A stretch of DNA of 64,000 nucleotides from an uncultured Opitutaceae bacterium (GTDB lineage: Bacteria > Verrucomicrobiota > Verrucomicrobiia > Opitutales > Opitutaceae): the NCBI GenBank assembly GCA_964414785.1, contig CAYPXZ010000016.1, positions 677-64,676 on the forward strand. The letters run 5' to 3'. Positions 23,925 through 40,231 of the stretch are shown here, piece after piece (positions within the stretch are counted from its first letter, which is position 1; each line of letters begins with the position of its first letter). Position numbers and translations under genes: made by a program. A model generated the notes under the pieces. The model did no database searches. It saw nothing but the letters and a program-made list of their open reading frames with translations, and was not told the DNA's origin.

Positions 23925-24394
23925 TTCAGGAGGATCAGGCTCAGTCCCATGAAGGTGAAGAGCCGGAAGGCGGCATCCTGGCCGTTCCAGATCTTGGACT
24001 GCCACATGAGGAACCATTCGCCGCCGACGGCCATGAAGGCGAAGTACCACTGGATGAGGCCCACCGTGAGGCCGACCGAGGCGAGGCCCTTGGCCTTCTT
24101 CCACTCGGCCGCGGGCGCGCCCCGGGCCTTCCACAGTTTGAAAGAGCCCGCGCCGATCAGCGCGCAGCAGAGCGACTCCCACCCGATGATCGAGGCGTAG
24201 AAGGCCTTGTGCAGGACCGGCGCGCGGATCGCGCGGTACATGGCCGCGTTCCCGGGGAAGGTCGTGTCCATGCTAAGGACATGCCGGACAAACTGGTAGT
24301 TCGAGTTGGGGTCGGTCAGGTTGTTGAAAACGACGACCAGCATGAAGAAGGACGAGAGCGACGTGATGACGATCTTGCAGAGTCTGAGTTGCAT
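23909..24394 (-). CDS. DUF2165-like small integral membrane protein
   Basis: 161 aa with four hydrophobic segments. The N-terminus LSSFFMLVVVFNNLTDPNSNYQFVRHVLSMDTTF resembles the DUF2165 family. Confidence 0.6.
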   Translation of the reverse strand: MQLRLCKIVITSLSSFFMLVVVFNNLTDPNSNYQFVRHVLSMDTTFPGNAAMYRAIRAPVLHKAFYASIIGWESLCCALIGAGSFKLWKARGAPAAEWKKAKGLASVGLTVGLIQWYFAFMAVGGEWFLMWQSKIWNGQDAAFRLFTFMGLSLILLNQADE

Positions 24395-24445: not shown

Positions 24446-25732
24446 CTAGCGGAGCTCGTCGTAGCCCGGGGGCCGCGCCTCCCGGATATTCTCGCCGTCG
24501 ACAAGGCGCCGCCGCGAGCCCTGCCGGCTCAGGAACTCGCTCAATGACCGGGCTGGGAAGACCACGAGATGGGCGGGGGAGCCCTCCGCCACGCGGCCCA
24601 TCGCCGGAAGGCCCACGATGTCCGCGGCCGCAGAGGTGACGACCGACACGGATTCGCCGAGGCGCGAGTCCAAGTGCGCGAGGCGCAGGCTCTGGATGTA
24701 GACCTCCGCGGCATCATAGTCCCCGTAGGCGAAGAACGCGTCGCGGACGTTGTCGCTGGCGCACGCGAGCGGAACGCCGGCGTCGAGGAGGTCCTGGACG
24801 AGCGTGATGCCCCGCCACTGCGGGGTCCGCGGGAACTGCGCGCCGCGCCGGTCCTGGAGGTAGAGGTTGCACAGGGGCAGCGAGATGACGCGGATGCCCG
24901 ACTCCTTCACCAGGGCGAGGGTCGAGCGCTGGCGGTCCGCGGGCTGGACCGACAGGCTGCAGCAGTGCCCGCAGACGACCGGGTTCGTGAAGGCGTTCCG
25001 GATCACGGCCTCGGCCACCGCGCGAAGGACCTCCTCCCCGGGGTTGCCGTTCTCGTCGACGTGCAGGTCCAGGCCCACTCCCCGGTCCCGCGCGATGGCC
25101 AGGAGGCGGTCAAGGTGCCGGGGCAGGTCGGGCGACATGGGGGACCAGCCGCCCAGGGCGCACGCCCCGTACTTGAGGGCGAGGTCGGCGATCGCGTCGC
25201 CCTGCGCGCCCTCGTAGTTCGCAAGGGCTGTGAGGGGCACCGTCTGCAGCGTGATCCGCCCCCGCCACGCCTCGCGCAGCTCCTGCATCGCCGCGTGGTT
25301 GACCTCTCCCCAGGGAAGCCAGGTGTCGACGTGCGTGCGGACGACCCTCGTGCCGTGCTCCCAGGCGCAGTGCAGGGCGAACCCGGCCCTGCGCAGGAGG
25401 TCCGGCCTCGTCCAGTTCTCCTTGTCCCTCGACAGGACGTCGAGCGCCTCGGCGAACGTGCCGCTCCTGTTTAGGGCCCGCTCCCAGGTGTGGGTCTTGT
25501 CGAGGTGGACGTGGGCGTCAACGAAGCCCGGGAAGACGAGCGCCCCGTCCAGGTCCACCGCGTTGTCCGGGCCCGACGGGACCGCGGCCGACGACCGGTG
25601 GACCGAGGTGATCTTCGACCCGGCGACCTCGATGTCGCAGAGGACGGACGGTTCCGCGGGATCCGGCGCCGGTAGGGCGATCGAAGCGGGTAGGACGGCG
25701 GCGGGCACGCGGGCCCTCTTGAGAAGAAGCAT
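24446..25732 (-). CDS. Cytosine deaminase-like amidohydrolase (CodA/AtzC-type)
   Basis: PGFVDAHVHLDKTHTWE (HxH metal motif), HVDE, and a C-terminal DN...D motif region. The start is set at MLLLKRARVP (25732). The 950-aa track ORF is a run-through artefact. Confidence 0.8.
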   Translation of the reverse strand: MLLLKRARVPAAVLPASIALPAPDPAEPSVLCDIEVAGSKITSVHRSSAAVPSGPDNAVDLDGALVFPGFVDAHVHLDKTHTWERALNRSGTFAEALDVLSRDKENWTRPDLLRRAGFALHCAWEHGTRVVRTHVDTWLPWGEVNHAAMQELREAWRGRITLQTVPLTALANYEGAQGDAIADLALKYGACALGGWSPMSPDLPRHLDRLLAIARDRGVGLDLHVDENGNPGEEVLRAVAEAVIRNAFTNPVVCGHCCSLSVQPADRQRSTLALVKESGIRVISLPLCNLYLQDRRGAQFPRTPQWRGITLVQDLLDAGVPLACASDNVRDAFFAYGDYDAAEVYIQSLRLAHLDSRLGESVSVVTSAAADIVGLPAMGRVAEGSPAHLVVFPARSLSEFLSRQGSRRRLVDGENIREARPPGYDELR

Positions 25733-25870
25733 GCCGGTGGGGAAAGCTGCGGAAAGCACGCTATGTGCCACATGTCCCGCCGCAAGGCTCCATACCGCAA
25801 AGGCCGCCCAAACTGAAACCCCGGCTTGCCGCGGCCCGCGCGATGGCAACATTCTTGCTCTCAACCGCTG

Positions 25871-27283
25871 ATGGACTCCCAACTTGTAGTACTGAAGTCG
25901 GAATTGCGCGCGATTGTCGGCGCGGGGGAGCTCATCGATTCCGGCGACACCCTGGAGACGCTGTCCAAGGACTACTACTGGTACTCGCCGGTCCTCAAGC
26001 GCCAGCTCGAGGACAAGCGCGCCGACATGGCCGTCCGCCCGGGCAGCGTCGAGGAGCTTCGCGCCGTGGTCGCGGCCTGCTGCCGGGCGCGCGTCCCCGT
26101 CGTGCCCCGGGGCGCGGGCACGGGCAACTACGGCCAGTGCGTCCCGCTCTACGGCGGAGTCGTCATCGATTTCTCGCGCATGGACCGGATCATCTCGCTC
26201 GACGGCGGGGTGGCCCACGTCGAGGCGGGCGCCCGGCTCGGCACGATAGAGGGCGAGGCCAGGAAATTGGGGTGGGAGCTTCGCTGCATGCCGTCGACCT
26301 GGATGAAGGCCACGATCGGCGGGTTCATGTGCGGCGGGTCCGGCGGGATCGGCTCGATCACTTGGGGCGGCATCAACGCCCCGGGCAACGTCAGGGCGGT
26401 CACGATGATGACGTGCGAGGAGACGCCCCGGCTGGTGCGCCTGGAGGAGGCGGAGTGCCTGAAGGCGCTGCACACCTACGGGACCACGGGGCTCATGGTC
26501 GAGGTGGAGATGCGCCTGGCGCCGAAGATCGACTACGACCAGCTGATCCTGAGCGCCCCCTCCTGGGACCGGCTCCTCGACTGGACCGACGCCGCCTCGA
26601 GGAGGCTCGAGTGGCGAAAGCGGCTGGTCACCCAGTTCGAGTGGCCGATCCCGTCCTATTTCAGGCCCCTGGCGAAGCACCTGCGAACCGGGGACTCGAT
26701 CACGTTCCTCCTTGTGGACCGCGCGCAGTCCGCCGAGGTGATCGCAAGCGCCGCCGCCGAGGGCATCGCCTGCGTCTACCAGAAGGCCCTCACGGACCCC
26801 CCGAGGCCCCCGTTCCTGACGGACTACACCTGGAACCACACGACGCTCTGGGCGATCAAGGCGGACCCCGCGATCACCTACCTGCAATCCGGCTTCGGGC
26901 CCAACTTCAGGCAGCAGTTCGCCGAACTGAGGAGCCGGTTCCCGGGCGAGATTCTTTTCCACCTGGAGTGGACCGCGGGCAACGCGAAGATGATGCGCGG
27001 GAACGCCGTCGCCAACAATGCGGACGAGATCGTGGTCGGCGGGATCCCGATCGTGTTCTTCAAGTCCGAGGAACGGCTCGGCGAGATCCTGCGCTGCTGC
27101 GAGGAGATCGGGGTGTTCATCGCCAACCCCCACACGGTCCACCTCGAGGAGGGCGGGCGCCATCCCAACATCGCCGACAAGCGCGCCTTCAAGGCGCAGG
27201 TCGACCCGGCCTCGCTCCTCAATCCCGGCAAGATGAAGACCTATCCCGTCAACCCCTTCGCGCGGGAGCCCGCCGCTACATGA
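25871..27283 (+). CDS. FAD-binding (FAD_binding_4 / vanillyl-alcohol-oxidase-type) oxidoreductase
   Basis: VVPRGAGTGNYGQCVPLYGGVVIDFSRM is typical of FAD-linked oxidases. Start at MDSQLVVLK. Confidence 0.75.
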   Translation: MDSQLVVLKSELRAIVGAGELIDSGDTLETLSKDYYWYSPVLKRQLEDKRADMAVRPGSVEELRAVVAACCRARVPVVPRGAGTGNYGQCVPLYGGVVIDFSRMDRIISLDGGVAHVEAGARLGTIEGEARKLGWELRCMPSTWMKATIGGFMCGGSGGIGSITWGGINAPGNVRAVTMMTCEETPRLVRLEEAECLKALHTYGTTGLMVEVEMRLAPKIDYDQLILSAPSWDRLLDWTDAASRRLEWRKRLVTQFEWPIPSYFRPLAKHLRTGDSITFLLVDRAQSAEVIASAAAEGIACVYQKALTDPPRPPFLTDYTWNHTTLWAIKADPAITYLQSGFGPNFRQQFAELRSRFPGEILFHLEWTAGNAKMMRGNAVANNADEIVVGGIPIVFFKSEERLGEILRCCEEIGVFIANPHTVHLEEGGRHPNIADKRAFKAQVDPASLLNPGKMKTYPVNPFAREPAAT

Positions 27284-28059
27284 GGCAGGAGGACCCACTG
27301 CCCATCGTCGAACTCAGGGACGTCGACAAGCGCTATGGAGACGGGCCGCTGATCCTCGACAAGATAGGGTTCGCCGCGAAGCGGGGCGACTTCATCACCC
27401 TCATCGGGCCCAGCGGGTGCGGCAAGTCGACCATCCTGAAGCTGATTTCCGGACTCAACCCGGTTTCGGCGGGCCGGATCGTCGTGGACGGCCTCGAGCC
27501 CGCCAACGCCGTCGAGAAGCTCTCCTTCGTCTTCCAGGAGCCGACGCTCCTGCCCTGGCGCACCGTGGCCCAGAACGTGGAGGTGCCGCTGAGGCTGCAC
27601 GGATCCGAGCCGGTCGCCCGGGCCGAGGTGGTCCGCAAGTCCCTCGCCCTCGTCGGCCTGGCGGACAGGATGGACTACTACCCGCGGCAGCTCTCGGGCG
27701 GCCAGAAGATGCGCGTGTCGATTGCGCGGGCGCTCAGCGTCTCGCCGAGGATCCTCCTCCTGGACGAGCCCTTCGGCGCGCTCGACGAGATGACCCGGGA
27801 CCACCTGAACGAGGAGCTCCTGGCGATCCGCCAGCAGCTCGCATGGACGGCCTTCTTCGTGACGCACTCCGTCTCCGAGGCGGTCTTCCTCTCGAACCGG
27901 ATCATCGTCCTGTCCGCGAACCCCGGTAGGGTCCACAGCGAGGTGCGGGTGGATTTCCCCTACCCGAGGACGGAGGAGACCCGCGAGTCGGCGCCGTTCC
28001 AGAAGATGGTCGCCGAGGTGTCCAAGATCCTGCGCTCGGTCGAGCGCCTGCACCCATGA
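27280..28059 (+). CDS. ABC transporter ATP-binding protein (NitT/TauT family)
   Basis: Walker A GPSGCGKST, signature LSGGQKMRV and Walker B LLLDEPFGALD. Its ATGA overlaps the upstream stop. Confidence 0.92.
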   Translation: MRQEDPLPIVELRDVDKRYGDGPLILDKIGFAAKRGDFITLIGPSGCGKSTILKLISGLNPVSAGRIVVDGLEPANAVEKLSFVFQEPTLLPWRTVAQNVEVPLRLHGSEPVARAEVVRKSLALVGLADRMDYYPRQLSGGQKMRVSIARALSVSPRILLLDEPFGALDEMTRDHLNEELLAIRQQLAWTAFFVTHSVSEAVFLSNRIIVLSANPGRVHSEVRVDFPYPRTEETRESAPFQKMVAEVSKILRSVERLHP

Positions 28060-28871
28060 GCGCCCCCAAGACCAGGTCGGGCCTGCCCGCGATCGTCCGA
28101 AGGTTCCTGCCGTTCGTGACCGGAATCGGCATGATCGTCGCCTGGTACGTCGTCTGCATGAGCCTGAGCGCCGACCAGCGTTTCCTGCTCCCGTCCCCGC
28201 ACGAAGTCGCGCGGGCCTTCGTCGACAAGGGCCCCGCCCTCTGGGGGGCGGCGCTCAACACCGGCGGGGGGGCCCTCCTCGGGTTCGGCCTGGCGGTGTG
28301 CCTGAGCTTCGCCTTCGCGCTCTTCCTCTCCCTCTCCCCGCTCGTCAGGGCCAGCTTCTACCCCTACCTGATGATCCTGCAGATGACCCCGATCATCGTC
28401 ATCGCCCCAATCCTCATCCTGTGGGTCGGGCCGGGACTGAAGAGCGTCGTCATCATCACCTTTTTGATCTGCTTCTTCCCGATGGTGGTGAACACCACCC
28501 AGGGGCTCATCTCGACCGACCGCAACCTCGTCGCCCTCTTCACGATGTGCAAGGCGACGAAATGGCAGGAGATCCTCCTGCTGAGGGTCCCCTCCGCGCT
28601 GCCGTATTTCTTCACGGGGCTGAGGATCGCGGCGACCCTGGCCCCCATAGGGGCGATCGTCGGCGACTACATCGCGGGAAACAGCGCGGGAGGGCAGGGG
28701 GGCCTCGGCTTCCTCACGATCATCTACAGCTCGCAGTTCCAGATGGGAGCGCTCTTCGCCACCGCGGCCGTCGGGTGCCTCCTCGGCTTCATCTTCGTCG
28801 CGGGCGTGATTGCCCTGAGCTGGCTCGCGCTCCACAAGTGGCACGACTCGTTCAGCCAATCCGACAATTGA
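28056..28871 (+). CDS. ABC transporter permease (NitT/TauT family)
   Basis: 271 aa with six hydrophobic segments and an EAA-like loop. It overlaps its neighbours by 4 nt and 1 nt. Confidence 0.88.
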   Translation: MSAPKTRSGLPAIVRRFLPFVTGIGMIVAWYVVCMSLSADQRFLLPSPHEVARAFVDKGPALWGAALNTGGGALLGFGLAVCLSFAFALFLSLSPLVRASFYPYLMILQMTPIIVIAPILILWVGPGLKSVVIITFLICFFPMVVNTTQGLISTDRNLVALFTMCKATKWQEILLLRVPSALPYFFTGLRIAATLAPIGAIVGDYIAGNSAGGQGGLGFLTIIYSSQFQMGALFATAAVGCLLGFIFVAGVIALSWLALHKWHDSFSQSDN

Positions 28872-29902
28872 TGAACCCGCTCCGGACGCCCAGGCAGGCC
28901 CCCGCGCTCGTTTGCGCCCTCCTTGCGTGCATGCTGGCCGGGTGTTCGAGGCCGGCGCCCGTGAGCCTCCCGGAGTCGGGGGTGGCGAAGACGCTTCCGA
29001 GGATCCGCTTCAAGACCGACTGGTACCCCCAGGCGGAGCACGGCGGCTTCTACCAGGCCCAGGCCAAGGGGTATTACCGGGATGCCGGGATCGACGTGGA
29101 CATCCAGCCGGGTGGGCCCGGCGTCCTCGTTTGGCAGCTCATGGTGGCGGGCCAGTGCGACATCGCCGTCAGCCGCAGCGACGACGTCGCCGTCTGGGTG
29201 TCGAAGGGCCTGCCGTTCATCGCGGTCGGCGCCTACATGGAGGGCGACCCGCAGGCCATCCTCGTCCACGACGAGAGTCCGGTCAGGACCTTCGCGGACC
29301 TGGACGGCAAGACGATCATGGGGGTGCCGGGATCGAACTGGATCGACTACCTCAAATTCCACTACCATATCGATTTCCGGCTCATTCCATCGAACTACGG
29401 GATCGCCCAGTTCATGGCGGACAAGGACTTCATGCAGCAGTGCTTCGTGACCAATGAGCCCTACTACGTCCGGAAGAATGGAGGGCATCCCCGCACGCTC
29501 CTCATGTCGGATTCCGGGTTCCGTCCCTACCGGATCCTCTTCACGACCCAGGGCTACCTTAAGGACCATGCCGCCGAGGTGCGCGCGTTCGTCGCGGCCT
29601 CGGTGCGCGGCTGGACGGACTTCATGAACGGCGACCCGACGCCCGGAAAGGCCCTCATCGCGAAGGCCAACCCCAACATGTCGGAGGAGTTCATGGACTA
29701 CTCGATCAAGGCCATGCGCGACTGGAACCTCGTGTCCGGCCGGCTGGCCGAGGGCGAGCGCATCGGTCTCATGACCCGCCGACGCCTCGAGGAGCAGGTC
29801 AACGACCTCTTCCAGCTGAAGATGATTCCGCAATTGATCCCGGTCGATAAATTTGTTCGATTCGACCTCATGCCGGAAGACCTTCAATCCGGGGCCAAGT
29901 AG
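28871..29902 (+). CDS. NMT1/THI5-type ABC substrate-binding lipoprotein (SBP-1)
   Basis: Lipobox LLACMLAGCS, then KTDWYPQAEHGGFYQAQAKGYYRDAGIDVDI, typical of NMT1/THI5-like binding proteins. Confidence 0.85.
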   Translation: MNPLRTPRQAPALVCALLACMLAGCSRPAPVSLPESGVAKTLPRIRFKTDWYPQAEHGGFYQAQAKGYYRDAGIDVDIQPGGPGVLVWQLMVAGQCDIAVSRSDDVAVWVSKGLPFIAVGAYMEGDPQAILVHDESPVRTFADLDGKTIMGVPGSNWIDYLKFHYHIDFRLIPSNYGIAQFMADKDFMQQCFVTNEPYYVRKNGGHPRTLLMSDSGFRPYRILFTTQGYLKDHAAEVRAFVAASVRGWTDFMNGDPTPGKALIAKANPNMSEEFMDYSIKAMRDWNLVSGRLAEGERIGLMTRRRLEEQVNDLFQLKMIPQLIPVDKFVRFDLMPEDLQSGAK

Positions 29903-29919
29903 TCGGTTATATCCAGTTA

Positions 29920-29935
29920 ATAATCAATTGATTAT
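29920..29935. promoter_or_regulatory. 16-bp perfect palindrome ATAATCAATTGATTAT upstream of TonB-dependent receptor 1
   Basis: Read directly, in a 114-nt AT-rich intergenic region 82 nt before the receptor ATG. The ATAATC/GATTAT arms are reminiscent of Fur-type boxes but do not match the E. coli consensus. Confidence 0.4.
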
Positions 29936-30016
29936 GCCGTAGAGGTATAAGGCAATTCATTGGCCCCATAAGATGCACGCATTGCATCCATCGAACACCA
30001 TCAAGAAAAATTATTC

Positions 30017-32593
30017 ATGCACCTCAACACCAAGAGACTCCTTCTGAAGGGCCCGGCGCTGCTGGGCCTCGTAATCGCGCTGAGCGCCGGACTCCGGGCG
30101 CAGTCATCGACGCCGCCGCCGTCGAGCCCCTCGGACTCGTCCACGACCCCCGCAACGGCAAACCAGAAGGTCACCACGCTGGAGAAATACACGGTGAGCG
30201 ACGTGCCGATCACCGAGCAGGTGCTCCCGACCGTCCGCCCGATCAACAGCGTCTACGGCGACGACCGAAGCATCATCGACATCCCGAGGTCGGTCTCGAG
30301 CGTGAACAAGGCCTGGATGGATGACCGGCAGGTCAAGAACGCGATGGACTTCGGGCAGTTCTCCCCGGGCGTATACGCCTCGGCCAACTACGGCATCCCG
30401 GGGGTTCCCCAGGTCCGCGGCGACTACGCCCAGATCTACGTGGACGGCCAGATCATCCCGTTCTCGCGAAACAGCACGTCGCTTTCGTTCAACGGCGTCG
30501 AGGCGATGGACATCGTGAAGGGCCCGGGAACGGCCGTATACGGCCCGCAGGGCAACGGCCCGGGCGGCTACGTCAACTTTGTGCCGAAGGAGCCCTATTT
30601 CGACCACGACCACACGGACATCTCGGCCACATTCGGCTACTGGACGAGCGGCCACTCCTACGCGAATCCGGAGTACACCATCGATTTCGGCGGCCCCCTG
30701 AGCGACAAGCTCGCCTACCGGGTGAGCTACCTGGGCCGGTACGGGGAGGGCTACTATCTCAACTCAAAGGACGAGACCCAGGACCTTTACGCGGCCCTGA
30801 CCTACCAGGCCACGAAGGACCTCAAGTTCGAGCTCTGGGGCGAGGGATTCGCCACGCGCACGAATGAGATCACCGGCGCGAACCGCGTCACGGAGCAGTT
30901 CATCAAGAACGGGACCTACATCGGCGGGCCGGCCATCCCCTCGATATCCCAGTATGGCTTTCCCTTTGGCGTGGATATCTATGCCCACCCGAACGACCCC
31001 TACACGACGATTGCCGACGGTTCGTACGTCATCGTGGATCCCGCCCACCTGTATACGACGAAGCTGCCGGCCTACGACGCGCTGGTCGGGCCCTATGACA
31101 CAGCCCGCTCCAAGCTCTTCGAGGGCCAGCTGAAAACGACGCTCGGGCTCTCGACCGACACATCCATCGTCAACCTCGCGTACTTCGGCCTCGAGCATTC
31201 CAACAAGTTCGAGACCTACGGCTACGACGAGTATATCCCGAGGAGCGAGTCGATCCAGGACCGGCTCGAGTTCCACACCAAGCTGGAGACGGGCAAGGTC
31301 GAGAACAACATCATCACGGGCCTCGACTACAGGTACACCTACCTGAGGGCCTACGACGACTACCAGACCGAGCCCTTCACCTACTACGACGTGAACCAGT
31401 CGCTCTCCAACATCTTCTACCCGGGTTACTACGCGGAGGGCGAGACCTGGGGCGGCGGACTTCAGGTCCCGGGGCATCCCGGCTACAGCACGGTCGAGCA
31501 CCAGGACAGCACGATCAAGGACTACGCCGCCTTCATCCAGGACGACGTGAGGTTCACCGATAGGTTCTCGGCCATCCTCGGGTTCCGCGAGGACTACATC
31601 TTTGCCAACTCGGCAAATCCCCCGTTCACGCAGGTGGGATACTACAACCAGTACTTCGAGTATGTTCCCCTGACCACGCCGATCTTCTTCGACCGCGGCG
31701 GCACCTACAGCGCCACCGCCGCGCGGTACGATCCGTCCTATTTCGCGAGCCTGATCTACAAGCTGACGGAGACGCAGTCCGTCTATGCCACCTATGACCG
31801 GGTGGACGCCACGCACGGGGCGACCAACTTCGGCGGCGTCGACAGCGGCGGCAACGGCACGGCCTACGGGATCGGCCAGTTGCCCCAGGGCAATGCGGGG
31901 ACCGTCGCGACCTCGATCTCAGTGGGCAGCACGCTCTACGAGGTCGGCTACAAGGGCAGCTACCTCGGCAACACGCTCTTCGTGAGCGCCTCGCTCTTCC
32001 AGCAGGACAAGGTTGAGTCCCAGCTCAAGGGCCCTCCGTTCAGGATCAAGGACAACGGCATTGAGCTGGACGTGATCTTCCAGCCCACGAAGGCGCTGAC
32101 GATCAACGGAAACCTGACGTACCAGGACGCGACGGCATTCGGGGACTACTTCTTCCAGGAGACGGGAAGCTACCTCGACGCCTACTCGACCTCGACCATC
32201 GTCGATGGAAAGCCCGGCACCGGAGTCGGCGCCGTCAACTATACCGGATACGTGCCGCCAACGGGCCGCATGCGGGCCCCGGGCGTCCCGCAGCTGATCG
32301 CCAACCTGTTCGTCGAGTACAAGTTCACGAACGGCATCGGCATCGGCGCGGGCCCGAACTTCATCGGCAAGCAATACGCCGACGACGAGGATGCGCTCTA
32401 CATCCCGAATGAATACGAGGTGGACGGCTACCTCATCTACGCCCCGAGCAAGAAATGGGATATTCGATTGAATATCACCAACTTGACCAACAATCGGGTA
32501 CTCGACCCGATCGACGTGAGCTTTGCGGGTAACGACACGATATTCGTGCGCAAGCCAATCTCGGCGTCGGTGACGTTCCGCCTGCACTACTGA
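30017..32593 (+). CDS. TonB-dependent receptor (paralog 1)
   Basis: 858 aa with a signal peptide, a plug domain (IDIPRSVSSVN, MDIVKGPGTAVYGPQG) and a long beta-barrel ending in an aromatic residue (FRLHY). Confidence 0.9.
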   Translation: MHLNTKRLLLKGPALLGLVIALSAGLRAQSSTPPPSSPSDSSTTPATANQKVTTLEKYTVSDVPITEQVLPTVRPINSVYGDDRSIIDIPRSVSSVNKAWMDDRQVKNAMDFGQFSPGVYASANYGIPGVPQVRGDYAQIYVDGQIIPFSRNSTSLSFNGVEAMDIVKGPGTAVYGPQGNGPGGYVNFVPKEPYFDHDHTDISATFGYWTSGHSYANPEYTIDFGGPLSDKLAYRVSYLGRYGEGYYLNSKDETQDLYAALTYQATKDLKFELWGEGFATRTNEITGANRVTEQFIKNGTYIGGPAIPSISQYGFPFGVDIYAHPNDPYTTIADGSYVIVDPAHLYTTKLPAYDALVGPYDTARSKLFEGQLKTTLGLSTDTSIVNLAYFGLEHSNKFETYGYDEYIPRSESIQDRLEFHTKLETGKVENNIITGLDYRYTYLRAYDDYQTEPFTYYDVNQSLSNIFYPGYYAEGETWGGGLQVPGHPGYSTVEHQDSTIKDYAAFIQDDVRFTDRFSAILGFREDYIFANSANPPFTQVGYYNQYFEYVPLTTPIFFDRGGTYSATAARYDPSYFASLIYKLTETQSVYATYDRVDATHGATNFGGVDSGGNGTAYGIGQLPQGNAGTVATSISVGSTLYEVGYKGSYLGNTLFVSASLFQQDKVESQLKGPPFRIKDNGIELDVIFQPTKALTINGNLTYQDATAFGDYFFQETGSYLDAYSTSTIVDGKPGTGVGAVNYTGYVPPTGRMRAPGVPQLIANLFVEYKFTNGIGIGAGPNFIGKQYADDEDALYIPNEYEVDGYLIYAPSKKWDIRLNITNLTNNRVLDPIDVSFAGNDTIFVRKPISASVTFRLHY

Positions 32594-32620
32594 CGGAGGC
32601 GCCGCAGAGGATATACCCGA

Positions 32621-32649
32621 AAAGGGGGCCCGAAAGGGCCCCCTTTTTC
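32621..32649 (+). terminator. Rho-independent terminator
   Basis: AAAGGGGGCCC-GAAA-GGGCCCCCTTTTT, a perfect GC stem with a GNRA-like loop and T-tract, 28 nt after the receptor 1 stop. Confidence 0.85.
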
Positions 32650-32790
32650 ATTGGGCCGCAGGGGGCGGCGCACGCGCAAAGTGGAAGCAGGCACGCAGAT
32701 AGGGTGCCAAAAACCTTCACCATAGGGCGCATGGCATGGGGGTTGCTAGAATCGGGTAAACCAACACCTGAAACCTAGTACCCAAACCGA

Positions 32791-35409
32791 ATGACCAAGA
32801 AACTCGTACTCAAGGGCCCGATCCTCGTGGGCGTGGCCTGCCTGATGGGCACCAGCCTCTTTGCGCAGTCCTCGACACCGCCTCCCGCCGCGTCCGCCGA
32901 GGCCGCCGCGGAGGGACAGAAGGCGACCAAGCTTGAGAAATACACCGTCAGCGACGTGCCGATTTCCGAGCAGGTGCTCCCGACCGTCCGCCCGATCGGC
33001 GACGTCCTGGGAGATGACACAAGCATCATCGACATCCCGCGATCCGTTTCCAGCGTCAACGCGGCGTGGATGAAGGACCGAATGGTGAAAAACGCCATGG
33101 ACTTCGGGCAGTTCTCCCCGGGCGTCTACTCGGCGGCCCAGTACGGCATCCCCGCGGTCCCCTTCATCCGCGGCGACCTCGGCTCGGTCTACGTCGACGG
33201 CCAGATCTCCATGTTCTCGCGCAACAGCACGCCGCCGAGCTTCAACGGCGTCGAGTCGATGGACATCGTCAAGGGCCCGGGCTCAGCGGTCTACGGGCCG
33301 CAGGGCGAGGGCGCCGGCGGCTACGTCGACTTCGTCATGAAGCAGCCGTACTTTGACAAGGACCACGCGGACATCGACGCCACGCTCGGCTACTGGTCCA
33401 GCGGCAAGATGTACTCCAATCCCGAGGTGACCCTGGATTTCGGAGGGCCTCTGAGCGACAAGTTCGCGTACCGGGTGAGCTACCTCGAGCGGTGGGGCAA
33501 CGGCTACTACGCAAACCTCCACAACTCCTCGCAGGACCTCTACGCGGCCATGACGTACCTGGCGACCAAGTCCCTGAAGTTCGAGGGCTGGATCCAGATG
33601 TATTCCGACAAGACCAACGAGAACACCGGCGTCAACCGCGTGACCCAGCAGTTCATCGACCACGGGACCTATGTCGCCGGCCCCACCTCCGTCCCGGAAT
33701 CCGGCCCCGACGCCTTCTTCGGGTACGACATCGCCAATCCGGGCGACCCCGTCGGCGCCTACGGCTCCTATCCCGACGGCGCGCTGCAGACCGTCACGAC
33801 GGCGACGGCGCACACCGTGAAGCTTCCGATGACCGCGGCCCTGATCGGGCCCAACGACACCGCCCGCTCAAAGCTCTTCCAGGCGCAGCTCAAGACCACG
33901 CTCGATCTCTCGACGGACTCGTTCGTCGTGAACCGAGCCCTGTTCTCGCTCGGCCGCTCGAACAAGTTCGAGACCTACGGCTATGACGAGTACGTCCCGC
34001 GCGAGGAGTCCATCCAGGACCGCCTCGAGTACCACGCCATCATGAAGTTGGGGTCGGTCGAGAACCACCTGATCGCAGGCGCCGACTTCCGGTTCTCCTA
34101 CCTGATCGCGTACCAGGACTTCACGACGGAGCCGTTCTCCTACTACGACCTCTCGCAGTCGGCATCCACGATCTACTATCCGGGCTACATCATGGAGGGT
34201 AAGACCTGGGGCGGCGGCGCCTCGGTCCCGGGAGCCCAGGGCTACAGCGCCAACGGCGAGTCGCCCGACACAGGCGGCTCCTCGGGCAACCAATGGTCCT
34301 ACATCTACGACACCGCGGTCTTCCTGCAGGACACCATCAAGGTCACGGACAAGTTCTCGATCACCCCGGGCTTCCGCTGGGACCACATCCAGGCGACCGA
34401 CTCGTCGCCGCCGGTCATCGAGCAGGGGTACAACGCGTACTTCACCTATTACCCGCTCACGACCCCGATCTACATCCCGCGCGGCCAGTCGAGCCCGCTC
34501 ATGGTGGATGAGTCCGGCCTCGGCGACGGCACGCACCCGACCTACGAGGGTTTCAACACGAGCGGCAGCAAGGACGACGAGTCCTACTTCCTGAGCCTCG
34601 GGTACAAGCTGACCGACACGACCTCGGTCTACGCGACCTACGACCGCGCGACGGCAATCCTCGGCACGTCGAACTTCGGCGGCCTCAACGTGAATCCCGT
34701 CGACGGAAACGCGGCCCTCTCGCTCCAGAAGTCGCTCGCCGCGCTGAGCACCCTCTACGAGGTCGGTATCAAGTCGAGCTTCCTCAACAACACGCTGTAC
34801 GGGAGCGTGGCGCTCTTCCAGCAGACGAAGTTTGGCGTCCAGATCGGCGGCGCCACCGACCTGATCAAGGACCAGGGCATCGAATTGGACGCCGTCTACC
34901 AGCCCTCAAAGGCCTGGACCGTGAACGGCAACTTCACCTACCAGAACGCGACGGTGTTCGGAGGCTCGTTCTTCCAGGAGACCGGCAACTACCTCGACAC
35001 CTACAACCCGGACTACATCGTGAACGGGCTCCCCGGCACGGGATTGGGCGCCCCGAATTTCACCAGCTACAAGCCGCCGACCGGCAGGATGCGGGCGCCC
35101 GGCATCCCGGCGATGCAGGCGAACCTCTTCCTGGTCTACACGTCGCCGATGGGCTGGGGCGCCGGCATCGGCCCCCAGATCCAGGGCAAGCAGTACGCCA
35201 ACGACCAGGAGACCCTCCACATCCCGCTTGAGACGGAGTGGGACGGGTATCTCTTCTACGGCAAGAAGGAGTGGGACGTCCGCCTCAACATCAAGAACCT
35301 CCTGAACGAGCGGATCCTGGACCCGATCGACGTGAGCTTCGCGGGCAACGACACGATCTACGTGCGCCCGCCGATCACGGCGTCGGTGACGTTCCGCTAC
35401 CACTATTGA
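32791..35409 (+). CDS. TonB-dependent receptor (paralog 2)
   Basis: 872 aa, colinear with paralog 1 and sharing long identical blocks (KYTVSDVPI.EQVLPTVRPI, IIDIPRSVSSVN, NAMDFGQFSPGVY, LDPIDVSFAGNDTI). Confidence 0.9.
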   Translation: MTKKLVLKGPILVGVACLMGTSLFAQSSTPPPAASAEAAAEGQKATKLEKYTVSDVPISEQVLPTVRPIGDVLGDDTSIIDIPRSVSSVNAAWMKDRMVKNAMDFGQFSPGVYSAAQYGIPAVPFIRGDLGSVYVDGQISMFSRNSTPPSFNGVESMDIVKGPGSAVYGPQGEGAGGYVDFVMKQPYFDKDHADIDATLGYWSSGKMYSNPEVTLDFGGPLSDKFAYRVSYLERWGNGYYANLHNSSQDLYAAMTYLATKSLKFEGWIQMYSDKTNENTGVNRVTQQFIDHGTYVAGPTSVPESGPDAFFGYDIANPGDPVGAYGSYPDGALQTVTTATAHTVKLPMTAALIGPNDTARSKLFQAQLKTTLDLSTDSFVVNRALFSLGRSNKFETYGYDEYVPREESIQDRLEYHAIMKLGSVENHLIAGADFRFSYLIAYQDFTTEPFSYYDLSQSASTIYYPGYIMEGKTWGGGASVPGAQGYSANGESPDTGGSSGNQWSYIYDTAVFLQDTIKVTDKFSITPGFRWDHIQATDSSPPVIEQGYNAYFTYYPLTTPIYIPRGQSSPLMVDESGLGDGTHPTYEGFNTSGSKDDESYFLSLGYKLTDTTSVYATYDRATAILGTSNFGGLNVNPVDGNAALSLQKSLAALSTLYEVGIKSSFLNNTLYGSVALFQQTKFGVQIGGATDLIKDQGIELDAVYQPSKAWTVNGNFTYQNATVFGGSFFQETGNYLDTYNPDYIVNGLPGTGLGAPNFTSYKPPTGRMRAPGIPAMQANLFLVYTSPMGWGAGIGPQIQGKQYANDQETLHIPLETEWDGYLFYGKKEWDVRLNIKNLLNERILDPIDVSFAGNDTIYVRPPITASVTFRYHY

Positions 35410-35435
35410 CCAGCAGACAGTCCTGACTGCTGATG

Positions 35436-35466
35436 AAAGGGGGGCCTCACGAGGGTCCCCCTTTTT
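35436..35466 (+). terminator. Rho-independent terminator abutting the next start codon
   Basis: AAAGGGGGGCCTCACGAGGGTCCCCCTTTTT, an imperfect GC-rich hairpin plus T5. The SBP-2 ATG starts 2 nt later. Confidence 0.7.
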
Positions 35467-35467
35467 C

Positions 35468-36424
35468 ATGAAACCGCTCCTCTGCCTCTCGCTCCTCCTG
35501 GCGGGCCCGCTGTCGGCGGGCGTGCCGATCACCTACTACCAGGACTGGTTCCCGGGCGCGCAGTTCGCCGGCCTCTACGAGGCGCTGGACCGGGGGTTCT
35601 ACGGGGCGGCGGGCCTCGACGTGACGGTGCATGCCTTCGCGTTCGGCCAGGATGCGGCGGGGATGATGGACGCGGATCCCTCGAGGGCCGCCGTGGGGAC
35701 CGTGGAGGGCTATATCCTGCTCCAGAAGCGCGCTAAGGGAGGGGACCTCCGGGCCCTCTCCGCGGTGCTCCGGGAAAGCCCCGCAGGGTACATGACCCTT
35801 CCCGGCAGGGGCGTGGATTCCGCGAGGGGCTTCGTTGGGAAGCGGGTCGGCGTCCACCGGTACGGGGACCCGCTGTTCCGCCTCTTCCTCCGCCGCGCGG
35901 GCGTCGACGAGGCGAGCGTGACGATGGTGTTCGTCGACGACGACGTCGGACGGCTCGTTCGCGGCGAGGTGGACGCCATGCAGGGCTACGCGATCGAGGA
36001 GCTCGTCCGGCTGGGGCGGCGGGTCGGGTCCGGCGAGGGCTTCCTCTCGTTCCGCGAGCTGGGCTTTGACGCCTATTCGCAGGTGGTCTTCTCGACGGGC
36101 GCCCAGGTGCGCGAACACCCCGGCGCGCTCCGGGCGTTCGTCGGCGCGACGCGGGAAGGCTGGGCCTACGCGATCGCCAATCCCGACCGGGCGGTCGACG
36201 CGGTCATGGCCCGCATGGGCGCCGGGGCCGACCGCGCCCTGGTGAGGGACATGTTCCTTGCGACGGTCCGGTTCGTCGCGCCCGGCGGCGAGGCGCCGCT
36301 CGGTCCCATGGACCCTGTGAAGTGGCGCGGCATGGCGGCCGCCTGCGTCGAGATGGGGATCCTGCCCCGCGCCGAGGACCCGGGAGTCTTCCTCTCCGGT
36401 GAAGTTACTTCAGGCCCGCGGTGA
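35468..36424 (+). CDS. NMT1/THI5-type periplasmic binding protein (SBP-2, divergent, non-lipoprotein signal)
   Basis: Signal MKPLLCLSLLLAGPLSAG, then ITYYQDWFPGAQFAGLYEALDRGFYGAAGLDVTV, the same fold signature as SBP-1 and SBP-3. Confidence 0.75.
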   Translation: MKPLLCLSLLLAGPLSAGVPITYYQDWFPGAQFAGLYEALDRGFYGAAGLDVTVHAFAFGQDAAGMMDADPSRAAVGTVEGYILLQKRAKGGDLRALSAVLRESPAGYMTLPGRGVDSARGFVGKRVGVHRYGDPLFRLFLRRAGVDEASVTMVFVDDDVGRLVRGEVDAMQGYAIEELVRLGRRVGSGEGFLSFRELGFDAYSQVVFSTGAQVREHPGALRAFVGATREGWAYAIANPDRAVDAVMARMGAGADRALVRDMFLATVRFVAPGGEAPLGPMDPVKWRGMAAACVEMGILPRAEDPGVFLSGEVTSGPR

Positions 36425-37259
36425 TGAACTCCACGAGCTGCGCCATTTGCTCGTCCGTGTAGCGGGGGTGCGCCTCCATCTTCGCGCTGGGGACGAGCGA
36501 CTTCGGATCGCGGACGTATTTCAAAAAGAAAGGCCGGTCGTAGGCGGCAAAGGCCGCGAGGACCTGGAACGGACGCCCCGCCTTCGTGCCCCCGAAGGTG
36601 CCGGCAGGGCCCGAGTGGCAGCTGGCGCAGGAATTCACCCAGATCTCGCGTCCGGCCCGCCCGGCCGGGCCCGCGGAGGCCCAGGGGCCCGAGTAGATGC
36701 CCCTGAAGCGCTCGGCGAAGGAGGCGACCTCGATCGTTGTCACGCCCCACGGCTTCTTGTGCTCGATGTCCAGGAACGCCGCGGCCGCCGGGACGAGTTC
36801 CGCGGACACGGTCACGACGTACGGGGCGGGGTTGAACTTCAGGCCCGGGGGCGGCCAGTCCGCCGGCCCCTTGCCGTTGATCTCCAGGACGAGGAAGGGC
36901 CTGTAGGTCCCGATGAAGCCGGACGTGAAGATGCCCACGTAGCCGTCGCCGCAGGTCGCAAAGAGCGCGTCGGCCCCCGGCAGCGCGGGAAGCGCCCTCC
37001 ACAGGTCGGACAGGAAGACGACCGTCAGGACCTGGGGGCCCTTCACGAACTCGCCGTCGAGGCGGACCTGGGAGGTCGGGAGCGCGCGCAGGTCCTCCCA
37101 CGAGGCGTATCGCGTCTCGCCCGCGGCGACGCCCGCCAGCTGGCCGGTCAGCGCAAGGTCAAAGGGCGAGCCCCGCTGCGCATGGAGCTCCAGGGCGCGC
37201 CCGGGGGCGGCGAGCGCGAGGACGGCTGATGCAACGGCCGCCGCGTACTGCAGTTTCAT
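36405..37259 (-). CDS. Secreted cytochrome c-domain protein (CxxCH) with N-terminal oxidoreductase molybdopterin-binding-like domain
   Basis: 284 aa with a signal peptide and a C-terminal CASCH heme-c motif. The N-terminal ~190 aa (LDGEFVKGPQVLTVVFLSDL..., FLVLEINGKGP) resembles YedY/sulfite-oxidase-like substrate domains. The N-terminal assignment is tentative. Confidence 0.5.
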   Translation of the reverse strand: MKLQYAAAVASAVLALAAPGRALELHAQRGSPFDLALTGQLAGVAAGETRYASWEDLRALPTSQVRLDGEFVKGPQVLTVVFLSDLWRALPALPGADALFATCGDGYVGIFTSGFIGTYRPFLVLEINGKGPADWPPPGLKFNPAPYVVTVSAELVPAAAAFLDIEHKKPWGVTTIEVASFAERFRGIYSGPWASAGPAGRAGREIWVNSCASCHSGPAGTFGGTKAGRPFQVLAAFAAYDRPFFLKYVRDPKSLVPSAKMEAHPRYTDEQMAQLVEFITAGLK

Positions 37260-37345
37260 GGAGCGGTTGATAGCACGAAGGGTGCCCGGACTGCGAGTAC
37301 TGCGCTGTTGCGGGCGCCCGGGGGGTTCTCTACGGATTTGCCCGG

Positions 37346-38353
37346 ATGACGCCCCTTCGACCCGGATTGCTCGCCGCCGCGCTCGCCTCGGCCCTGGCCG
37401 TATGCGGCTGTTCGCGGAGCGCGCCGGGGGATACCTCGGCCGGGGCGGGAGCCACGGCGCCCTTCAAGATCACGGTCCAGCTCGACTGGGTCGCGGAGCC
37501 CGAGCACGGGGGGTTCTACCAGGCCCTGGCGAAGGGGTATTTCAAGGAGGCGGGCCTGGATGTGAACGTGATCCAGGGCGGCCCGAACGGCTACGTCCTG
37601 CAGAAGGTGGCGACCGGCCAGGCCGACTTCGGCCAGTCGGACAGCACGAACGTGCTCCTCGCGATCAACCAGGGCCTTCCCATCATCCAGGTCGGCGCCG
37701 TGTTCCAGAACGACCCCTCGGTGCTCATGCTCCACGCCGACAACCCGGTGAAGACCTTCGAGGACCTGAACGGGAAGACCATCATGGCCCGCCTGGAATG
37801 GGCGTTCCTGCCGTACCTCAAGAACAAGTACCACATCGACTTCAAGATCATCCCCCAGAACTTCGCGGTCGGCAATTTCATCGCCGACCCGAACTTCATC
37901 CAGCAGGGGTTCTACACGGCGGAGCCGTATTTCATCGTGAAGGGCGGGGCGAAGTACCCGAAGTTCCTTTACGCCTGGGACGCGGGTTTTGACGCCTACA
38001 CCTGCATCGTCGCGAACCGCCGATGGGCCGAGGCGAACGCCGCCCACGCCCGCGCGTTCATGGCGGCCTACATCAGGGGCTGGAAGGACTACATCGAGGG
38101 CGACCCGGCTCCCGCGCACGCGCTGATGAAGCAGGTGAACCCCAACGTGACGGACGGATTCCTTGCCTTCTCACACAAGATGATCGTCGACGAGAAGCTG
38201 GTCATTGGGCGCCACGCCACGGACGACTCCCAGACGGGAAGGATCTCGGGGGAGCGCTTTGCCGTCCAGATCCGCCAGCTCGAGGACCTGGGGATCCTCC
38301 CCAGGGGAAAGCTGACCGCCGACCAGGTCATGACGACCGCCTACCTCCCATGA
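37346..38353 (+). CDS. NMT1/THI5-type ABC substrate-binding lipoprotein (SBP-3)
   Basis: Lipobox ALAVCGCS and QLDWVAEPEHGGFYQALAKGYFKEAGLDVNV. It is clearly paralogous to SBP-1 along its full length. Confidence 0.85.
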   Translation: MTPLRPGLLAAALASALAVCGCSRSAPGDTSAGAGATAPFKITVQLDWVAEPEHGGFYQALAKGYFKEAGLDVNVIQGGPNGYVLQKVATGQADFGQSDSTNVLLAINQGLPIIQVGAVFQNDPSVLMLHADNPVKTFEDLNGKTIMARLEWAFLPYLKNKYHIDFKIIPQNFAVGNFIADPNFIQQGFYTAEPYFIVKGGAKYPKFLYAWDAGFDAYTCIVANRRWAEANAAHARAFMAAYIRGWKDYIEGDPAPAHALMKQVNPNVTDGFLAFSHKMIVDEKLVIGRHATDDSQTGRISGERFAVQIRQLEDLGILPRGKLTADQVMTTAYLP

Positions 38354-38769
38354 AGACACCTCCGGCTTTTCTCGCCTGCCTCTGCGCGCTCGCCCTCGCC
38401 GGCTGCGGCCACCTGGAGCTCTCGCCCGAGGGGGACCCCCTCAGGGTGCTCACGGGCCAGGTCGACCTGGGGGACGCCGTCGCGCTCCCCTCGGACGCGA
38501 CGGTGACGGTCCGCGTCGAGGACACGTCGGCCGCCGGCATGCCGCCCCAGGTGCTGGGCTCGCAGACCGTGAGCAACCCCGGGACGGCGCCCATTGCCTT
38601 CCGCCTGGAGTACCGCGCCGAGGACGAGGTCCTTCGCCGGGGCCTCAACATCGAGGCCCGCGTCTCCTATTCCGGGAGGGTGCAGTACTACAACGTGAAC
38701 CGCTACGTCGTGACCCTGGGCAACGCAACCGACCCCCATCGCATCAGCGTGGTGCCCGCCAGTCGGTGA
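38350..38769 (+). CDS. YbaY/YscW-like lipoprotein
   Basis: Lipobox ALALAGCG, then LTGQVDLGDAVALPSDATVTVRVEDTSAAGMPPQVLGSQTV...PIAFRLEY, matching the YbaY family pattern. Its ATGA overlaps the SBP-3 stop. Confidence 0.7.
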   Translation: MKTPPAFLACLCALALAGCGHLELSPEGDPLRVLTGQVDLGDAVALPSDATVTVRVEDTSAAGMPPQVLGSQTVSNPGTAPIAFRLEYRAEDEVLRRGLNIEARVSYSGRVQYYNVNRYVVTLGNATDPHRISVVPASR

Positions 38770-39768: not shown

Positions 39769-39805
39769 TTGAATTTTGGCCCATCCGGGGGAATAATACC
39801 CCCGG
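39769..39805 (+). promoter_or_regulatory. Candidate sigma70-like promoter (TTGAAT-17 nt-AATAAT) whose -10 lies in the loop of an inverted repeat CCGGGGG-N7-CCCCCGG
   Basis: Read directly, about 90-120 nt upstream of the precursor-peptide ATG. Confidence 0.3.
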
Positions 39806-39890
39806 TAGTAACTCTTATACCCACACCGCACGGATCGGCACAGTGCCGGGCCGTGGCGGGCACTCCGAAACCCAACAATAGAAGTCTGTT

Positions 39891-40148: not shown

Positions 40149-40196
40149 GGGACCGGCCGAGCTCAGCAACGTCAGCCTCAAAGGACCTTTAGCGAC

Positions 40197-40227
40197 GCGG
40201 CCGGCTGGAACGCCGGCCGCGTTTTTT
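40197..40227 (+). terminator. Strong intrinsic terminator/attenuator between precursor and modification genes
   Basis: GCGGCCGGC-TGGAAC-GCCGGCCGC followed by GTTTTTT. It ends 4 nt before the DUF692 ATG. Confidence 0.8.
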
Positions 40228-40231
40228 CAAT

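Follow-up and report, generated by a model that had tools for sequence, protein, structure and literature searches.

Organization of the locus

The DNA described here is a stretch of 64 kb (the window) from a contig of an uncultured Opitutaceae bacterium, represented by a metagenome-assembled genome (MAG) of 3.9 Mb that is 96% complete; coordinates given without a contig name are positions in this window. It contains a locus in which a single ATP-binding cassette (ABC) importer, three substrate-binding proteins (SBPs) of the NMT1/THI5 type and two TonB-dependent receptors are encoded together with a CodA/AtzC-like metal amidohydrolase, a FAD-linked oxidase and a periplasmic protein that joins a PruR-like domain to a cytochrome c. 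Genes were called from a listing of open reading frames (ORFs) and from Pfam and NCBIfam scans of the window proteins. These scans recovered every gene named in a first-pass annotation of the sequence, as well as the arrangement it had described: an oxidase-ATPase-permease-SBP1 operon divergent from the amidohydrolase gene, its members overlapping by 4, 4 and 1 nt; two paralogous receptors (58% identical), each with its own terminator, a G+C-rich hairpin followed by T5 in both cases; and SBP1 and SBP3 as full-length paralogues (42% identity), SBP2 being more divergent (27% identity to SBP1 over 224 residues). Two of its statements had to be revised. The gene list was incomplete, the gene of a periplasmic protein of 284 residues between SBP2 and SBP3 (36405-37259, minus strand) having been overlooked, and the limits given to the locus, 24446-38353, were too narrow, as the conserved block continues on both sides. 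On the left it takes in a DUF2165 gene (23909-24394, minus strand) and an AtzE-like amidase gene (22671-23924, plus strand); on the right SBP3, a YscW-like lipoprotein and a 2-hydroxyacid dehydrogenase are successively coupled by 4-nt overlaps. The features are the following.

22671-23924, plus strand: amidase-signature enzyme, AtzE/PRK08310-like, flanking partner (Pfam Amidase, 9e-58)
23909-24394, minus strand: DUF2165 small integral membrane protein, downstream of the deaminase gene (PF09933, 1e-59)
24446-25732, minus strand: CodA/AtzC-like metal amidohydrolase (NF005759/PRK07583, 461 bits, cut-off 403)
25755-25770, minus strand: putative sigma-54-type promoter TGGCACATAGCGTGCT, 22 nt upstream of the deaminase ATG
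25844-25859, plus strand: putative sigma-54-type promoter TGGCAACATTCTTGCT, 11 nt upstream of the FAD oxidase ATG
25871-27283, plus strand: VAO/GlcD-type FAD-linked oxidase (FAD_binding_4, 1e-27)
27280-28059, plus strand: ABC ATPase of the NitT/TauT type (ABC_tran, 5e-31)
28056-28871, plus strand: ABC permease (BPD_transp_1, 5e-22)
28871-29902, plus strand: SBP1, NMT1/THI5-type lipoprotein (PF09084, 4e-32)
29920-29935, no strand: perfect 16-bp palindrome ATAATCAATTGATTAT, AT-rich, upstream of receptor 1, a possible operator
30017-32593, plus strand: TonB-dependent receptor 1 (plug and beta-barrel domains)
32620-32649, plus strand: intrinsic terminator after receptor 1, AAAAGGGGGCCCGAAAGGGCCCCCTTTTTC (read directly from the sequence)
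32732-32747, plus strand: putative sigma-54-type promoter TGGCATGGGGGTTGCT, 43 nt upstream of receptor 2
32791-35409, plus strand: TonB-dependent receptor 2 (plug and beta-barrel domains)
35436-35467, plus strand: intrinsic terminator after receptor 2, abutting the SBP2 ATG (read directly from the sequence)
35468-36424, plus strand: SBP2, divergent NMT1-type binding protein (PF09084, 2e-32)
36405-37259, minus strand: periplasmic protein with a PruR-like domain (truncated SUOX fold) and a class I cytochrome c (AlphaFold2 model, Foldseek)
37272-37287, minus strand: weaker sigma-54-like motif GGGCACCCTTCGTGCT, 13 nt upstream of the cytochrome gene
37346-38353, plus strand: SBP3, NMT1-type lipoprotein, SBP1 paralogue (PF09084, 3e-36)
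38350-38769, plus strand: YscW/YbaY-like lipoprotein, 4-nt overlap with SBP3 (PF09619, 2e-15)
38766-39731, plus strand: D-2-hydroxyacid dehydrogenase family protein, 4-nt overlap with the lipoprotein gene (2-Hacid_dh_C, 2e-48)

A PruR-like domain fused to cytochrome c

The protein of 284 residues carries a signal peptide with a Sec-type leader, a PruR-like N-terminal domain of about 150 residues and a C-terminal cytochrome c domain, and its AlphaFold2 (AF2) model has a predicted local distance difference test (pLDDT) score of 91. The top Foldseek matches of the N-terminal domain are PruR pterin-binding proteins, including a neopterin complex (E about 1e-6, template modelling (TM) scores of 0.69-0.80); enzymes of the molybdenum cofactor (Moco) rank lower (TM 0.28-0.39). 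A profile search of the protein against the PDB sequences matched the cytochrome part alone, and Pfam gave no sulfite-oxidase signature in the 284 residues. Since a Sec-type leader and a covalent heme occur in the same polypeptide, the sequence argues against a Tat-exported Moco enzyme. The heme site (C211, C214 and H215 of the CxxCH motif, with M261 as the distal residue) is invariant in an alignment of 29 sequences, and cytochrome c profiles match this part of the protein.

The pterin contacts of PruR include Asn102, Tyr104, Trp160 and a Pro-Trp70 motif (PMC11194511). Candidate counterparts of the first three, assigned by sequence motif and not by superposition, are D105 (29 of the 29 aligned sequences), Y107 (27/29) and W171 (26/29); the motif D105-G-Y107 is conserved, and Asp105 is invariant. 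Two residues before it stands Cys103, present in 28 of the 29 homologues; the cysteine that binds Moco in SUOX enzymes occupies a different position.

The family is small, with 241 representatives among 1.84 billion proteins. In other Opitutales the PruR-like and cytochrome c domains also occur fused to an SBP1-type protein in lipoproteins of about 600 residues (P0143, P0146, P0192, P0227, P0230 and P0245), the SBP1-type part of which is 40-47% identical; in the sampled genomes these long forms are encoded 5-13 kb from the deaminase gene. A cyclase/phosphodiesterase partner of the DcpA type is absent among the neighbours, which are SBPs, the deaminase and receptors instead.

The amidohydrolase and the oxidase

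The CodA-like protein shares 27-28% identity with Escherichia coli CodA and with AtzC. All metal-binding and catalytic residues of CodA are retained, His61, His63, His214, Glu217, His246 and Asp313 corresponding to H74, H76, H224, E227, H256 and D327, and these six positions are conserved across the alignment of the amidohydrolase family. Gln156, which binds cytosine in CodA, is absent; it aligns with Ala169 in a variable segment. Asp314 of CodA is replaced by Asn328, an asparagine that is at least 90% conserved in the family alignment. Features of AtzC are present as well, namely Lys79 (HTHMDK in AtzC) and S326-D-N-V-R-D331 (SDNIRD in AtzC). The name "cytosine deaminase" attached to NF005759 is an annotation label only: judged by its residues, the protein is probably not a cytosine deaminase, and its substrate is probably neither cytosine nor necessarily a triazine. 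Doi et al. (2025) reported that cytosine-deaminase-like (CDA-like) genes replace the pterin deaminase in some pterin/lumazine clusters (PMC12391406), and pterin deaminase activity is ascribed there, with reference to Fan et al. (2013), to the CDA-like Arad_3529. By analogy, the amidohydrolase of the locus is a candidate pterin-type aminohydrolase; its likeness to Arad_3529 is a presumed one, drawn from the description in PMC12391406. For brevity it is called the deaminase below.

Residues 22-458 of the FAD-linked oxidase align full-length with PDB entries 6V42 and 6V43, a "FAD/FMN-containing dehydrogenase" (phmmer E 2e-85), for which a literature search found no publication.

The ABC importer and its binding proteins

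The best NCBIfam models for the ABC ATPase are TauB, SaoA and NrtCD, all under cut-off. The three SBPs score 112-126 bits against PF09084 (cut-off 20.5), as compared with 24-37 bits against SsuA_fam, for which the cut-off is 163.5, and no NCBIfam match to NrtA was obtained among them. Comparison of the AF2 model of SBP1 (pLDDT 93) by Foldseek returned as best folds 4nmy (thiamin-bound), 3ix1 (ThiY in complex with N-formyl-4-amino-5-aminomethyl-2-methylpyrimidine, FAMP) and THI5, with TM scores of 0.80-0.82; SsuA, TauA, PqqT, CmpA and NrtA are placed lower than ThiY and THI5 in this ranking. The first-pass annotation had allowed for SBPs lying squarely within the sulfonate or nitrate clades. 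They lie outside these groups, given an SsuA score far under cut-off and best sequence and fold matches to thiamin and FAMP binders and THI5, and the modelled fold belongs to this heterocycle-binding branch and not to the sulfonate/nitrate branch.

The three proteins differ in their distribution. SBP2 is present in some same-genus genomes only, and in other families the SBP2 type is encoded in one operon with the PruR-like cytochrome c protein and the deaminase. In the Opitutaceae, SBP3 and the cytochrome gene stand in every case side by side or in divergent orientation.

Receptors and sigma-54-type promoters

Both receptors match PF07715 (plug) and PF00593 (the 22-strand barrel domain) and are weakly similar to siderophore/metallophore receptors. 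The terminators that follow them were recognised by reading the sequence; a simple terminator scan did not flag them. The palindrome upstream of receptor 1 is present in a single copy in the 3.9-Mb genome when up to 2 mismatches are allowed and is absent from the same spot upstream of the receptor in relatives; on these two grounds control by Fur or Zur through this element was rejected.

A motif of the sigma-54 type, TGGCA-N6-KTGCW (the GG-N10-GC type, with elements TGGCAC-N5-TTGCW), was found three times in the window, where 0.27 occurrences are expected, and all three precede genes of the locus: the deaminase, the oxidase operon and receptor 2. Among 70 matches in the related loci (1.4 Mb), 53 lie just upstream of the same gene families (deaminase 21, oxidase 13, receptors 16, cytochrome gene 3), and the motif of the oxidase gene stands 12-14 nt upstream at 13 sites. 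The element before the cytochrome gene of the present locus has two mismatches to the consensus, and full motifs precede its homologues in three loci. Genome-wide there are 33 matches, others of which lie before the PII and GSII genes, before flagellar genes and before a DUF3891-amidohydrolase pair; the genome encodes rpoN and about eight activators. The putative sigma-54 promoters are common to the enzyme genes and the receptors, which points to a shared regulon type, and because the motif is also common to PII and GSII, this regulon type would here be a nitrogen-assimilation one as well. An unrelated regulon for the receptors, one of the outcomes considered at first, is at variance with this sharing of the motif with deaminase and oxidase, and also with a paralogous module in which a receptor accompanies the deaminase-SBP pair. 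No sigma-54 motif precedes receptor 1, which may be transcribed by read-through from SBP1.

The search for riboswitches gave no match to an Rfam family at E<=1. With no thiamine pyrophosphate (TPP) riboswitch and with ThiC present in the genome, thiamine-type control is unsupported, as had been concluded from the first reading.

Further observations concern the promoters. Only 11 nt separate the -12 element of the oxidase promoter from the ATG, so that the mRNA of the operon would be leaderless or nearly so. On contig C69 (3631-5731 and 6637-7173) a motif stands 11 nt before the DUF3891 gene, which is followed by a TRZ/ATZ-type amidohydrolase gene, with a RidA-like gene nearby; homologues of these genes adjoin the deaminase gene in other Opitutales, which suggests a dispersed regulon. 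A motif near RidA-creatininase genes on contig C33 was rejected as a promoter, as it lies inside a gene of the major facilitator superfamily.

Conservation across genomes

A scan of one genome per species returned 244 deaminase relatives, and 78 loci were kept. The neighbourhood, whose conservation in relatives the first-pass annotation had named as the point to be checked, has been kept far outside the genus, in part across the order and in other phyla. About 12 same-genus genomes keep the whole order from the amidase to a bufferin cluster downstream, with one or two receptors and a variable SBP2. In other Opitutales families a single operon cytochrome-SBP2-deaminase-DUF2165 is found, for example in Thalassobacterium and in the relative G033. 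The core, consisting of SBP, ABC importer, CodA-like enzyme and FAD oxidase, forms one operon in five phyla (the cyanobacterial operon is without the oxidase), its hosts including Methylomirabilota, Dormibacterota, Alphaproteobacteria (Ancylobacter, Rhizobium johnstonii pRL12 and Paroceanicella) and Cyanobacteria. Frequent additional members of these operons are a LysR regulator, creatininase-family proteins, RidA, NAD(P)H oxidoreductases and a 2-oxoglutarate (2OG) oxygenase, and what the Opitutales version adds to the core is the TonB-dependent receptor, DUF2165 and the PruR-like cytochrome gene. An arrangement that recurs in this way in the genus and partly in the order and in other phyla is far from a chance one.

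The genome under study contains a second module on contig C72 (5572-8150), in which an SBP1-like gene is divergent from a CodA-like paralogue (55% identical), and a receptor fragment, 52% identical to receptors 1 and 2, at the start of contig C64 (12-1841). In relatives the paralogous deaminase-SBP pair adjoins its own receptor.

A variant of the operon was seen in Agrobacterium tumefaciens (pAtAF1_95, 7286-13296), with the order SBP-ATPase-permease-2OG/Fe(II) oxygenase-LysR-CodA-like (38% identical), where the oxygenase replaces the FAD oxidase. PaoABC-like genes beside the Rhizobium johnstonii operon were considered and set aside; the region holds none of the genes of the lumazine-degrading cluster I of Cupriavidus described below.

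Folate synthesis genes in carriers of the locus

No match to FolE-I, FolB or FolK was found in this genome, and none to a transporter of the BT1 family. DHFR, MetH, FolE2 and ThiC are present (contigs C9, C10, C35 and C7). Dihydropteroate synthase is considered missing because the only match to the pterin-binding domain is MetH. On this gene content the organism appears to be a folate auxotroph. The MetH ORF (C9:35866-38601) starts at the pterin-binding domain; the homocysteine-binding domain may be separately encoded.

Among 41 relatives the presence patterns of FolB and FolK are identical. Both are missing from 16 of the 17 genomes with a strong deaminase match, and both are present in 16 of the 24 without the deaminase. 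The exception, a genome of the same genus (G001), has FolB and FolK, and its CodA-like gene (G001:C19:61240-62520) contains an in-frame TGA, which may reflect decay or an assembly error; conversely, one apparent non-carrier without FolK (G022) carries the locus at a contig end. Within the genus, presence of the locus and loss of FolB/FolK coincide almost exactly. ThiC is found in 22 of 24 genus genomes, with or without the locus.

The comparison was extended to 201 genomes sampled evenly across the order, all with a completeness of 85% or more. Sixteen of them (10 genera, 6 families) have the deaminase, 18 the cytochrome protein and 15 both. FolK is found in none of the 16 deaminase genomes and in none of the 18 cytochrome genomes, as compared with 135 of the 185 without the deaminase. 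Uncorrected for ancestry, Fisher's test gives p values for the loss of FolK of 5e-9 with the deaminase and 3e-10 with the cytochrome protein; counted over six independent families, the association with FolK has p of about 4e-4.

Proposed function and alternatives

The co-functional uptake architecture put forward in the first-pass annotation is well supported, and we consider it very probable. As regards the further proposal of N-heterocycle salvage, the architecture stands, the substrate can tentatively be narrowed to pteridines, and salvage becomes one option beside nitrogen scavenging. In our view the chances are about even that the locus encodes a sigma-54-dependent, envelope-spanning system for uptake and deamination of pteridines (pterin and/or folate), a proposal built on sequence, structural models and analogy. 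Three independent clues favour the pteridine class: a PruR-like fold that in some proteins is fused to the SBP1 type, the precedent of CDA-like pterin deaminases and, in the sample of the order, the restriction of the system to genomes that lack the pterin branch. While the gene content with its conservation, the promoter motifs, the fold assignments, the fusions and this restriction are observations, substrate identity, direction and purpose of the flux, and the role of the heme domain are what we infer.

In such a system one or two TonB-dependent receptors would bring the pteridine across the outer membrane. In the periplasm, the PruR-like pterin-binding domain together with its cytochrome c could provide a hand-off or redox-conditioning step, and up to three NMT1/ThiY-type SBPs would deliver the pteridine to the single ABC importer. 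In the cytoplasm the CodA/AtzC-like aminohydrolase would then strip the ring amino group, a chemistry of the pterin to lumazine type, and the VAO-type flavoprotein would oxidise the deaminated product or the side chain. The flux could supply an auxotroph with folate or pterin, free ring nitrogen when nitrogen is limiting, or do both. The sigma-54 promoters, the deaminase and the amidase are in keeping with nitrogen scavenging; the auxotrophy, the receptors and the absence of folate carriers of known type agree with a supply of the vitamin.

A number of observations weigh against pteridines as the substrate. The N-terminal domain of the cytochrome protein resembles PruR at the level of the fold only (15-17% identity), the family showed no PW motif like that of PruR, and the matching of contact residues comes from sequence motifs rather than from superposition. 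A deaminase would destroy the pterin ring rather than salvage it, so that catabolism fits better than vitamin supply; the known lumazine-degrading genes LuDH, DHLI and XCDC are not in the locus. The phyletic association is uncorrected for ancestry and comes from 6 families and 10 genera, mostly MAGs. Moreover, FolK is present in carriers of the core operon, namely in Ancylobacter, a cyanobacterium, one MAG each of the Methylomirabilota and the Gammaproteobacteria, and Thalassobacterium, whose cytochrome-SBP-deaminase operon is complete; the locus therefore does not require auxotrophy. Finally, the accessory genes found elsewhere (creatininase family, RidA, 2OG oxygenase, CocE/NonD hydrolase) suit other amino-heterocycles equally well.

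A more far-reaching form of the pteridine proposal strikes us as rather unlikely, if conceivable. The locus would be the first TonB- and SBP-dependent ABC importer of folate or pterin, a "Btu-like" route for vitamin B9 that permits loss of the pterin branch in whole lineages of Opitutales, and the PruR-like cytochrome c protein would be a new pterin hand-off or redox protein working physically with an SBP.

Of the explanations that dispense with pteridines, the one with most in its favour retains the same machinery for another substrate, an amino N-heterocycle or cyclic amidine degraded for ammonia under nitrogen limitation, with the PruR-like fold and the auxotrophy as incidental features. 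The substrate might be a pyrimidine, a compound resembling ammelide or a triazine, one resembling creatinine or hydantoin, or an oxidised vitamin fragment. Lys79 and the SDN328xRD motif are shared with AtzC, an s-triazine enzyme; partners in other genomes are enzymes of a generic kind for ring opening and deamination, TRZ/ATZ amidohydrolases and an AtzE-like amidase occurring beside the creatininase-family, RidA and oxygenase genes already named; the promoter type is that of the PII and GSII genes; the LysR-controlled versions on Rhizobium and Paroceanicella plasmids are typical of catabolic operons; and the carriers with an intact FolK speak in the same direction. This explanation, however, does not account for the fusion of a pterin-binding-type fold to the SBP1 type, nor for the absence of FolB/FolK in all sampled Opitutales carriers, and small pyrimidines or creatinine would hardly need TonB-dependent receptors. 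We regard it as a tentative alternative, one that is possible and on balance doubtful.

Salvage of the thiamine pyrimidine, that is of 4-amino-5-hydroxymethyl-2-methylpyrimidine (HMP), FAMP or 4-amino-5-aminomethyl-2-methylpyrimidine (AmMP), by a system of the ThiXYZ type with added outer-membrane receptors would be in line with the closest solved relatives of SBP1, a thiamin-bound SBP, the FAMP-binding ThiY and THI5. It is nonetheless very improbable in the face of the missing TPP riboswitch, the presence of ThiC irrespective of the locus, the absence of a TenA, ThiD or YlmB partner from all of the loci and an identity to ThiY of about 20%; in addition, deamination at the 4-amino group would destroy HMP. 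Equally improbable is uptake of a metal or metallophore (iron, zinc or lanthanide, of the siderophore or lut type), in which the enzymes would process the chelator. The weak best matches of the receptors are siderophore/metallophore receptors, the AT-rich palindrome upstream of receptor 1 has Fur-box-like arms, PqqT, a pyrroloquinoline quinone-binding SBP, is among the lower fold matches of SBP1, and a copper-peptide (bufferin) cluster lies next door; but the palindrome is single in the genome and not kept in relatives, the conserved promoters are of the sigma-54 and not of the Fur type, the core operon is receptor-free in five phyla, and chelator-biosynthesis genes are absent. Lanthanide uptake of the lut kind in particular was dropped, as the lut paper names no LutA family, a literature search gave no link between NMT1 proteins and lanthanides, and other support was lacking. 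The least probable view, that receptors, orphan SBPs and cytochrome gene are unrelated neighbours held together by shared ancestry in one genus, can point to full synteny mainly in one genus and to an SBP2 and a second receptor that come and go, but is contradicted by cytochrome-SBP-deaminase-DUF2165 operons in other families, by the co-occurrence of the cytochrome protein and the deaminase (15/16 deaminase genomes and 15/18 cytochrome genomes), by the existence of SBP-cytochrome fusions and by the shared promoter type.

Relation to known systems

With ThiXYZ/ThiY of Bacillus halodurans (3ix1), and with 4nmy, the locus has in common an SBP of the NMT1/THI5 fold that works with a NitT/TauT-type importer for a heterocycle of the amino-pyrimidine type. 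It differs from ThiXYZ by the low identity (about 20%) and by the lack of a TPP riboswitch and of TenA/YlmB/ThiD, and adds receptors, three SBPs, the deaminase and the oxidase. The pterin-sensing pair PruR-DcpA of Agrobacterium tumefaciens and other Proteobacteria (PMC11194511) likewise has a Sec-exported, truncated SUOX fold without the Moco cysteine loop, whereas here no cyclase gene is adjacent, the domain is fused to a cytochrome c and sometimes to an SBP, and the context is a transport/catabolic operon and not a signalling pair. The SorAB sulfite:cytochrome c oxidoreductases, which belong to the lower Foldseek matches, also combine a periplasmic SUOX fold with a c-type cytochrome; in contrast, the domain of the locus protein is cut to about 150 residues, the leader is a Sec-type one and the heme sits covalently on the same polypeptide, which argues against loading with Moco.

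On the enzymatic side, the deaminase shares with CodA and AtzC (Pseudomonas/Paenarthrobacter) the subtype III amidohydrolase fold and all metal-binding and catalytic residues. In cluster I of Cupriavidus sp. LA-1 (PMC12391406), which is likewise from a soil bacterium, pterin deamination comes first and is carried out by an enzyme of the amidohydrolase superfamily. That cluster has as features of its own LuDH (xanthine oxidoreductase (XOR) family), DHLI (an amidohydrolase_2 pair), a UbiD-type decarboxylase, a GTP-binding chaperone and predicted purine/pyrimidine permeases; none of these genes was found in the locus or in related loci, XOR-family genes occurring elsewhere in the genome, and the locus has instead the FAD oxidase, the ABC importer, the receptors and the PruR-like cytochrome c protein. 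BtuB-BtuF-BtuCD is alike in architecture only, combining a receptor, an SBP and an ABC importer for a scarce cofactor in a non-producing organism; the protein families are unrelated, and the locus differs further by the lack of a riboswitch, by catabolic enzymes in the operon and by sigma-54 control.

To our knowledge, ECF-FolT and the BT1/FBT carriers are the only bacterial folate importers known. A literature search found no TonB- or SBP-dependent importer of pterin or folate, and in a 2026 review the way in which pterins cross bacterial membranes is stated to be unknown (PMC13259868). The locus offers a testable candidate route for the uptake of pteridines across both the outer and the inner membrane, and gives a possible substrate class to a core operon of five phyla with the database label "cytosine deaminase", to which no substrate had been assigned before. 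If the pteridine proposal is true, it would account for the way in which common Verrucomicrobia of soil and peat do without folate synthesis, the turnover of pterin pigments and folates in the environment would gain a further route, and the PruR fold would be seen in a new role. Should it prove wrong, what the comparative data define is still a coherent sigma-54 regulon, one for some N-heterocycle.

Flanking genes

The bufferin-type DUF692/DUF2063 copper-peptide cluster (39769-42494) lies directly downstream of the conserved block and is syntenic with the locus in the genus; a functional link to it was not found. The amidase reaches 259 bits with PRK08310 and 210 bits with the AtzE family of NCBIfam, both under cut-off; its gene adjoins every same-genus locus and two further Opitutales loci. 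Nearly all Opitutales loci, and a gammaproteobacterial MAG, have DUF2165 after the CodA-like gene. The gene of the YscW-like lipoprotein is syntenic across all same-genus loci. The 2-hydroxyacid dehydrogenase gene is also syntenic in the genus, and a distant homologue of it stands downstream of the Ancylobacter operon.

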